From assembly GCA_965649765.1 (NCBI GenBank), contig OZ287754.1, positions 30,566,001-30,630,000 on the forward strand: DNA of 64,000 bases. The letters run 5' to 3'. This stretch comes from Bispira polyomma. Its lineage: Eukaryota. A program made the position numbers and the translations under genes. Shown here piece by piece: positions 3,569-5,855 of the stretch. The notes beneath the pieces were generated by a model, which saw nothing but the letters and a program-made list of their open reading frames with translations, had not been told where the DNA came from and searched no databases. Positions within the stretch are counted from its first letter, which is position 1. Each line of letters opens with the position of its first letter.

Positions 3569-5855
3569 ATGGCAGAAGCTGGGTGGAACATCAATACAGC
3601 GACTATGGCGGAGGTGATGGAGATTAACGATGTTGGTCCACGTAGAGCTGAACTGATTCTTGAGCACAGAGCGAAGTTCTGGGGATTCATGTCCCTGGAA
3701 GATTTTCAGACAGTGGAGCTACCAGAGGATGTCAAGGAGAATATATGCTTCAGAAGGAGTTAATACTCTTTTTGTTGAGAAATCATCACAGGAAAGGCAG
3801 AGAGATAGTATGTTTTCATTTCCTGTTGGAGCAACAAAACCTGCTGCTGAAGGAGTTAATCCTCTTTTAGGGGCGAAATCATTACAAGGGAAACAGGAAG
3901 GACAAATGTTTACATTTCCTGTCGAGGCAACTAAATATGCTTCAAAGGGAGTTAATCCTCTTTTGAAGTATACTCTGGGAGGAGCCAGTACTCTTTCTGA
4001 GGAGAAATCTTTGCCGAAAGAAGAACTGTTAAAGGTAGAAGCAGAAATAGGCGTAGAGGAATCCTATCGAAACTTTAATGAAATCAATCGGCAAAAGAAT
4101 GAATTCCAGAGGTCATACTTTGAAAACTGTGAACGCCAAAGACATAACATCGCACAACTTCATCGTCAGAATCAGCAGTTGGTAAATGAGTATCAAGTCT
4201 TCCATAACAGGAGGAGATTGGAATGGGGAGGTTTGAACAGCAAAGCAAAGCGGGCAGTGGAAAGCATCAATCAGGGGGTTACCAAAATGAAACAACAGTT
4301 TGATGTGGACTACCCATTGCCAGTACAGTATCCTGACGACAAGGATTTGGACTGGACTGGTCTTGATCTTAATCTTTCACGAGTCGCGGGGGATTCCATA
4401 TCATCACAGTTAGTGGGGCCTCAGTCTGGGCATGCAGTAAAAGTAGTTTCAGGTGAGCCTGTAGGATCAAGTGAAAAGCCATTACCTGTTGAGAGAAAAG
4501 TGCCTGAGAGTTCTATACTTCCCAAGGATCCTGAAGACAGTGATATCAACCACATTGTGACCTGCATTGAGAATAAAACAGATTCCCGAAAAGATATCGG
4601 TGGAAGCCGATCAGGTCATAACAGAAATATCACTGGTAGTGAGAGCAAGAAGACAACCAGGCGTAGGAAGTTGCCATCGAAACTAACTCCCAAGTGTAAT
4701 CTGGATAGTTCTTGTGATGGGTCTTTACAATTTTCTCACTCAGAAGGTGAATCCATTGCAACTGAGCCATCCAGAGTGAGTAGAAGTTCCCGTATCACCA
4801 GTACTCCCGCATCAGTAAGGAACAAGATGCAGATCCCTAAAATGTCTTTTTTCCGGGGAATATTGGAGAGGTTTTAAGCTGTAGCTGATAAATTCAATTG
4901 GTCAGAAGCTGATAAGCTAGATGCCTTTCCGATGGTTCTGAAGAAAGAAGCTCTAGAGTATTACAGCATACTGCCCAAGGAGAAGTTGAAATGCTTTAGT
5001 TGGTTGAAAACAAAGTTTGAGCACAACTTTAACAAACTTGAACCACCAACAACAGTCAAATGGGCATTACTCTCCGCAGAGCAACGTGAAGATGAAACAC
5101 TTGAGAAGTATTTAGCACGACTTGAGAAGATGATCCTGGACGCGTATCCAAATATTCGAGACCAAGAATTCAATAACTCTATGTTTGTGGAAGTGTTTCT
5201 GAAAGGATGTAAGGACAAGGGAGCAGTTTTAGCAGTTTGTGACAAAAATCCACAGAATTTGGAGGAGGCTTATACTCTTGTCAAATCTGCATCTACCTAT
5301 CGGAGGACTATATTGGGGAAGAAGGGTGGAGGCAATGTGAAGAAACTTGAAATGGAATTACAGACAAGTTCTGATAGTGACAGTTCGGGGACTTGTTCTA
5401 TAAGTAACGTCAAAGTGAGAAACTTGCAGTTTAAGAACAAGTCGGGTACCAAACCATCAGTGCCACATACAGAGCGTCTGGATACTGTGGAGATTGGTCT
5501 AAAAGAGATGAAGAATTCAATAGCTGAAGTGTTAGCCTTGCTGACGAAATCAAATTCTTCAAATCCTAAAGGCATGGCCTGTTTTGAATGCGACGACACA
5601 TCACATTTAGTGAGGGATTGTCCCAAAAGAAGAAATCAATCACCTCGCCGTAGCCCTAGCGGAAGTGATGACAAAAACTGGCGCAGCAATACAAACACAG
5701 AGACCAATGTAGACTTTAGGCCATCTTACCAGAAGGCGAATCAGGGGTTCAGATCTTATTCACCTCAGCCACAGCAGAGAAGTAGTTCTCCCAGAGGTGT
5801 GCAAAATAGTAATTCCACAAGTCCTAGAGGAGGATTTGATTCTTTAAACAAGTAG
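3569..5855 (+). pseudogene. gag: Gag with N-terminal helix-hairpin-helix, ~32-aa repeats, coiled coil, capsid region and CCHC knuckle
   Basis: NINTATMAEVMEINDVGPRRAELILEHR...GFMSLEDF is ComEA/HHH_3-like. Q...E.LE.Y..RL capsid motif and CFECDDTSHLVRDC knuckle. Frameshift ~3750 and stop at 4875. Confidence 0.85.

Follow-up and report, generated by a model that had tools for sequence, protein, structure and literature searches.

Why should the Gag protein of an LTR retrotransposon begin with a helix-hairpin-helix (HhH) domain of the ComEA type? The question is raised by a stretch of 64,000 nucleotides from Bispira polyomma (contig OZ287754.1 of assembly GCA_965649765.1, forward-strand positions 30,566,001 to 30,630,000; hereafter the window), for which an initial annotation had proposed such a domain at the Gag N-terminus. 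Beyond a few models, little is understood of how the particles of envelope-less retrotransposons get to chromatin and stay on it, and the known targeting domains are mostly found on integrase. Here a folded, conserved module of 65 residues occupies the matrix position in Gag, and one of its residues should be critical, to judge from ComEA; this makes the idea of a Gag-based tether directly testable. We find that the HhH-Gag layout is real and conserved and, as far as we searched, undescribed in print.

The element that carries the domain is a Ty3/gypsy LTR retrotransposon of ~10.7 kb spanning positions 2556-13254 of the window (Table 1). It displays the hallmarks of this group, namely paired LTRs (8 mismatches over 334 aligned bases) with a target-site duplication, a gag with capsid and zinc knuckle, and the PR-RT-RH-IN order. 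By Pfam, the complete order is seen in a relative, L003, the window protease being recognized by motif only; the L003 pol is unbroken and is identical to the window at 56% of positions in RT and 51% in RNase H-integrase. Pfam matches within the window Gag were above the cut-off for Retrotrans_gag (E = 3.7e-5) and weak for zf-CCHC (E = 0.064). The -1 slippery heptamer at the gag-pol junction sits immediately before the gag stop (5843-5855), and every aligned near-group Gag ends in Leu-Asn-X, matching the heptamer, which makes a -1 frameshift at the end of gag the likely route to pol. Both pol and ORF3 of the window copy have decayed through stops and frame breaks. The window element is a dead copy, most likely with a deletion where the HhH domain ends.

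Table 1. Features of the HhH-bearing element, in window coordinates
Feature	Position	Strand	Evidence
Left target-site duplication, 4 bp	2552-2555		Identical four bases at 13255-13258
5' LTR, 335 bp, TG...TA ends	2556-2890	+	Direct repeat D1, 97%
PBS-like site, placed by position only; extended 5' UTR holding seven short upstream ATG frames	2891-3568	+	Sequence
Gag N-terminal ComEA-type HhH, 59 codons to the break	3569-3746	+	Pfam, PDB, model; frame stop at 3761-3763
Deletion junction (most likely), frame change	3746-3747	+	Contig divergence on both sides; slippery site absent
Gag middle: 96-bp repeats, predicted coiled coil, low-complexity linker	3747-4877	+	Repeat D12; helices modelled in P0007
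Gag: capsid, CCHC zinc knuckle and, at 5843, a -1 slippery heptamer	4878-5855	+	Pfam
pol: protease-RT-RNase H-integrase, several stops and frame breaks	5856-9857	+	Pfam and motif
ORF3 region in pieces: Arg/Ser-rich repeats, Cys/His motif, C-terminal TatD (~11940-12770)	9740-12776	+	Pfam; 5' limit uncertain
3' LTR, after a short purine-rich tract	12920-13254	+	Direct repeat; end at 13254 backed by diverging contig ends
Right target-site duplication	13255-13258		Matches 2552-2555

Both LTRs have TG...TA rather than TG...CA ends, and the target duplication is 4 bp long. The element interrupts a minus-strand LINE endonuclease-RT frame (window 1092-2555 and 13255-15218); uninterrupted, empty-site forms of this insertion site are present as loose contig ends in the runs. 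A Cys/His-rich insert at ~8185-8310, between RNase H and integrase, is possibly a zinc-binding module. Elsewhere, the window holds a ~450-bp repeat (41539-43047; two copies 1.07 kb apart, 93-97% alike) and, on the minus strand, a second, decayed gypsy element (54133-63108) whose LTRs are 95-98% alike and whose Gag is PNMA-like. When this second LTR element was searched for HhH and TatD, neither was matched; HhH is thus not general to gypsy Gags.

The peptide quoted in the initial annotation is present letter for letter in the ORF 3551-3763, from the ATG at 3569. This is the first ATG after the LTR to open more than 15 codons, the seven earlier ones opening 5-15. Its assignment to the ComEA/HHH_3 family is borne out by a profile match to HHH_3 (PF12836; E = 3.9e-8; 33.7 bits, where the Pfam cut-off is 27) that spans profile positions 5-49 of 65. 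The closest PDB sequence matches of the ORF are EEPD1 (9yi2) and ComEA (8dfk, 8dss). The structural model of the domain adopts a four-helix ComEA fold with ComEA as its nearest neighbor, the per-domain score being higher for ComEA than for either EEPD1 unit. PsbU and T2SS protein K were also among the profile and fold matches; BAF was absent from the fold matches listed for the model. The top viral fold matches, obtained with a model of 3569-3760, were giant-virus ComEA-like HhH-repeat proteins at weak E-values of 0.2-0.8. An ESM Atlas search returned only generic HHH_3 clusters and generic Gag clusters under 0.9. In related Gags the HHH_3 scores are 13-26 bits, under the Pfam cut-off. The likeness to ComEA concerns the domain: ComEA as a whole is an exported or membrane-anchored protein of bacterial DNA uptake, whereas here HhH is fused to a coiled coil, a capsid and a CCHC knuckle in an LTR element.

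According to the initial annotation, the HhH runs into gag through a single frameshift. The fusion stands, on the evidence of intact relatives described below; the single frameshift does not, being replaced by a probable deletion at 3746 and a second break before the capsid. The frame 3657-4877 is indeed gag, as it aligns with the middle of related Gags at 37-48%. However, in runs X1 and X2 of one study, the main contig on the HhH side departs from the window sequence at 3746 and continues with other letters, and the main contig of the following stretch starts matching at 3746, with different letters before it. Because the contigs diverge there from both sides, the window copy is most likely missing a stretch, and the frame change most likely stems from sequence lost in this copy rather than from a ribosomal slip. 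A scan of 3569-3800 found no slippery heptamer, and a programmed frameshift at 3746 was rejected on both grounds. In the 22 loose contig letters past 3746, few as they are, the HhH frame stays open and by eye resembles the domain-closing motif of the relatives. Among the contigs listed, no single one covers the whole gag of the window family. The second break, at 4847-4877 (a stop at 4875-4877 with nearby length differences relative to the runs), parts the middle of Gag from the capsid frame 4878-5855, so one frameshift would fail to reach the capsid. The 96-bp repeat units that follow the HhH (3746-3990) belong to the window family, were not seen in P0012 and differ in length among contigs.

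Intact fusions emerged when the capsid frame was used to look for longer proteins. Five were found, and the clusters of four were examined; the fifth, P0003, nearly duplicates P0004 and begins inside the HhH domain. All four related protein clusters contain natural single frames in which HhH is followed by a long helical region, a linker and the capsid, with the zinc knuckle closing the same frame in full-length members. HhH and capsid occur together on 3, 5, 8 and 2 of the 15 members listed for each cluster (out of 21, 28, 71 and 18, respectively), the remaining listed members being fragments or starting at a later methionine. A metagenome scan added four distant loci (L001-L004), two of which have an unbroken HhH-gag frame: in L001 and L002 the HhH opens an intact gag frame or lies close to its beginning, and their capsids are only 30-32% identical to that of the window. 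The other two are uninformative on HhH, since L003 starts within gag and L004 is a 1.4-kb piece. The unbroken fusion is thus found in six related families, and a free-standing upstream ORF was rejected on this basis. In the model of one intact relative (P0007), residues 1-68 form a confidently predicted domain, with a flexible stretch and a pair of long helices after it. In L001 (L001:582-2528), about 40 acidic low-complexity residues precede the HhH and Gag has two zinc knuckles. A Trp-Thr-Gly-Leu-Asp-Leu motif lies between the helical region and the linker in all five aligned full-length Gags and in the window (~4355-4375; A2 columns 673-678). Other searches added little: a word-based search for longer proteins with the 64-residue ORF yielded none among 48 candidates, a Gag-alignment search gave four additional proteins only, all short, and queries with TatD, Gag or RT retrieved no relatives from the viral contig set; the genome contig set yielded none either.

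How well is the domain conserved? Across seven families the mean identity is 32% for HhH and 44% for capsid; for the 60 residues after HhH it is 18% (six families). The window and P0012 are 86% identical in the capsid but only 36% in HhH, which counts against a tightly constrained HhH surface and may reflect either fast surface change or exchange of a 5' gag segment. Within clusters, HhH varied less than the linker (12 variants at 232 sites versus 192 at 2252), although with p = 0.08 and unequal cover. Across families, HhH and capsid identities gave a correlation of rho 0.29 (p = 0.20). A tree of the seven HhH domains alone had no well-supported branch; its pairing of L001 with L002 (80/87) suggests that HhH and capsid descended together.

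For comparison, a HMMER search with the HhH gave 457 matches, of which 150 proteins, each with at least two matched stretches, were listed; 148 of these supplied 424 HHH_3 units. None of the 150 had a capsid match, and all 38 that were scanned against Pfam were multi-HHH_3 proteins. Against this background the Gag domains share a distinct signature: Phe at position 46 occurs in six of seven but in 4% of the other units, and the second GhG motif, present in 305/424 units, is absent from all seven, six of which have Pro at that Gly. We therefore file the Gag HhH as a derived, one-hairpin variant of the ComEA type. In a tree with 45 HHH_3 units (one per protein, randomly drawn), all seven Gag domains fall on one side of a 100/98 branch and so form a single clade apart from the bacterial-type repeats; the alignment behind it is short, the branch is a long one, and the rows included no eukaryotic HhH. 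Such a grouping would fit a single capture of HhH by the group, with an EEPD1-like host gene, a bacterium or a giant virus as possible donors.

Would the domain bind DNA? A V. cholerae ComEA study (PMC3879209) describes Lys 63 (with Lys 62), located after hairpin 1, as required for DNA binding, Gly 60 as accepting small residues only and Arg 71 as probably structural, and reports a loss-of-binding phenotype when either motif is removed from the protein. In B. subtilis ComEA, Lys 164 is the best conserved among the tested residues (PMC9747964). Six of the seven Gag families have the Gly 60 equivalent, six, including the window, have Lys or Arg at the position of Lys 63/Lys 164, and all seven, again including the window, have the equivalent of Arg 71. 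Lys or Arg at the Lys 63 position is rarer in other units (33%; Fisher p = 0.007, a value that wrongly counts related families as independent). There is also opposing evidence. In addition to the loss of the second GhG in all seven families, the first glycine of motif 1 is replaced in three; the window keeps only the second glycine of that motif, and G-h-G/S is seen in 4/7 families versus 302/424 units. Moreover, three families have acidic HhH domains, two of them strongly so, with a net charge of -7 in the window and -8 in L002 compared with a median of -1. Weak single sites can nonetheless act by avidity, as is illustrated by EEPD1, whose HhH domains bind only as part of the full-length dimer (PMC12988330). 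On these residue patterns, sequence-independent dsDNA binding, as initially annotated, is plausible, and we consider DNA binding at one site, driven by avidity, somewhat better than an even prospect.

Where the domain would act is suggested by Ty3, in whose capsid the N-terminal part of CA points outward and NC with the genome forms the inner layer (PMC6525542). By this analogy, and given the predicted coiled-coil stalk, the HhH would be displayed on the capsid exterior and likely face the cell rather than the cDNA. Two uses had been put forward at the outset, cDNA tethering and chromatin docking; with CA pointing outward and the genome inside, docking fits better than tethering of cDNA within the particle. 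MLV p12 has such a docking role (PMC6021111). Our preferred reading, held tentatively and at a little under an even chance, is that a ComEA-type HhH, the first domain of Gag in a group of animal Ty3/gypsy elements, sits outside the capsid on a coiled-coil stalk, grips DNA weakly and serves as a chromatin tether. The first hairpin would hold the DNA backbone weakly, as residue equivalence with ComEA predicts; many copies would act jointly, as in EEPD1; and, on the model of MLV p12 and foamy-virus Gag, the particle would be tethered to host chromatin ahead of integration.

The same features could instead belong to a module for assembly or protein contact: as a cap resembling a matrix, it would pack its remodelled hairpin 2 on another Gag or on a host protein and retain little or no binding of nucleic acids. 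The common derived signature (Phe 46 and the Pro for Gly in hairpin 2), the acidic domains in three families, the rapid divergence between close families and the matches to PsbU and T2SS protein K would all suit such a module, and (HhH)2 domains are known to mediate the XPF-ERCC1 and Mus81-Eme1 dimers (PMC12988330). Yet the Lys 63-equivalent basic residue and the Gly 60-equivalent glycine are held in six of seven families that are otherwise 24-39% alike, and we regard this possibility as unlikely, although it is the strongest competitor of the chromatin tether.

Alternatively, the HhH could act as a built-in BAF which, after shell opening or release by protease, bridges and compacts the element's own cDNA against autointegration and sensors. 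BAF binds dsDNA via an HhH motif, and its dimer protects retroviral complexes from autointegration (PMC3381236). The neighboring long helices of the model could provide the oligomer, and the -1 site ending gag would place HhH on Gag-Pol as well. While the shell is intact, however, an N-terminal extension most likely points away from the cDNA, and animals already encode BAF (same source), making this role improbable. A broader reading would combine a clade-wide, single capture of a ComEA-type clamp with hundreds of coiled-coil spikes that serve as chromatin tether, BAF substitute and, with TatD, a grip-and-trim kit. It is a long shot; if true, the Gag-borne DNA-binding fold would have no described counterpart in retroelements. 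Binding of RNA, either for genome selection or to nascent transcripts or transcription complexes, as the Tex/Spt6/TEFM branch may do, deserves little credence, because the sequence profiles favor HHH_3/ComEA and Gag already has a CCHC knuckle.

The initial annotation also linked the HhH to the TatD domain encoded downstream. TatD_DNase was matched in ORF3 of both the window (E = 1.1e-35) and L003 (E = 6e-36), in each case over profile positions 1/2-252/253. What we take to be the TatD metal-binding positions are complete in L003 and show one departure in the decayed window copy. ORF3 of L003 (733 codons, L003:5909-8107) has TatD at its end and is 28% identical to the window ORF3; upstream of TatD, both share a short Cys/His motif. 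Since the capsid of TatD-bearing L003 groups with those of HhH-bearing L001 and L002 at 100/100, both modules likely predate the split of the group, and the clade would be marked by two unusual captured modules, HhH on Gag and TatD as ORF3. Does the HhH-Gag, then, hold DNA for the TatD nuclease to process in the same particle? Besides the likely ancestral presence of both, HHH_3 is joined to nuclease-type domains elsewhere (EEPD1; the PLD-like P0142). However, this pairing received no direct support: TatD lies in a separate ORF3, and only the window element is seen to carry both modules, L003 starting inside gag and L001 and L002 ending before ORF3. Furthermore, an ORF3 is typically expressed as a transcription unit of its own, from a spliced message (PMC5408684). 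Common ancestry suffices for the co-occurrence, descent being the simple reading of these sequences, and we find a shared particle function very doubtful. Finally, the stop after 64 codons might suggest an upstream ORF that stands alone, a programmed frameshift, or host DNA captured by the window copy only. Such readings have a negligible probability in view of the unbroken fusions in six related families, the divergence of same-family contigs at 3746 and the absence of a slippery site.

A literature search, with supplements and repeat databases outside its scope, turned up neither a ComEA-type Gag domain nor a TatD-encoding ORF3. HhH and TatD are unmentioned in the main texts of PMC5408684, PMC13524379, PMC8321522 and PMC8220671, and HhH in that of PMC6238403. 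The Cer1 CERV/Gag 'H domain' is named helix-hairpin-helix in PMC10309623, but the term there denotes a hairpin with the leucine zipper common to CERV and Gag, and we rejected it as a precedent. The bdelloid Juno and Vesta elements have non-env ORF3s for a DEDDy exonuclease and a GDSL esterase (PMC5408684); a nuclease-type enzyme thus occurs at the Ty3/gypsy ORF3 as it does here, although here the enzyme is TatD.

Among the systems closest in proposed function, BAF is likewise an HhH-based, sequence-independent dsDNA binder of retroviral integration complexes, but it is a host protein and a free dimer, whereas the Gag HhH is encoded by the element and of ComEA type. MLV p12 and the chromatin-binding sequence of foamy-virus Gag are also Gag-encoded and have been proposed to tether capsid complexes to chromatin, as we propose for the Gag HhH. 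They are, however, short histone-binding peptides without homology to the HhH, which is folded and has relatives that bind the DNA backbone. Animal EEPD1 (two (HhH)2 domains and EEP; 9yi2), the best whole-sequence PDB match and a possible host donor, has N-terminal HhH domains that act by avidity; in Gag there is a single HhH unit, to which a coiled coil and the capsid are joined. The closest likeness is to the DNA-binding domain of ComEA (HHH_3, PF12836; 8dss, 8dfk, 2duy), which gives the above-cut-off profile and the best fold match and whose V. cholerae residues Gly 60, Lys 63 and Arg 71 are matched by the hairpin-1 glycine, the basic residue and the arginine of the Gag HhH. The Gag domain differs in its place at a retrotransposon Gag N-terminus with no competence context, in a second hairpin without GhG, in a family-specific terminal motif and in its often acidic character. 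With it, a fold of the bacterial DNA-uptake type would have been put to new use on a capsid.
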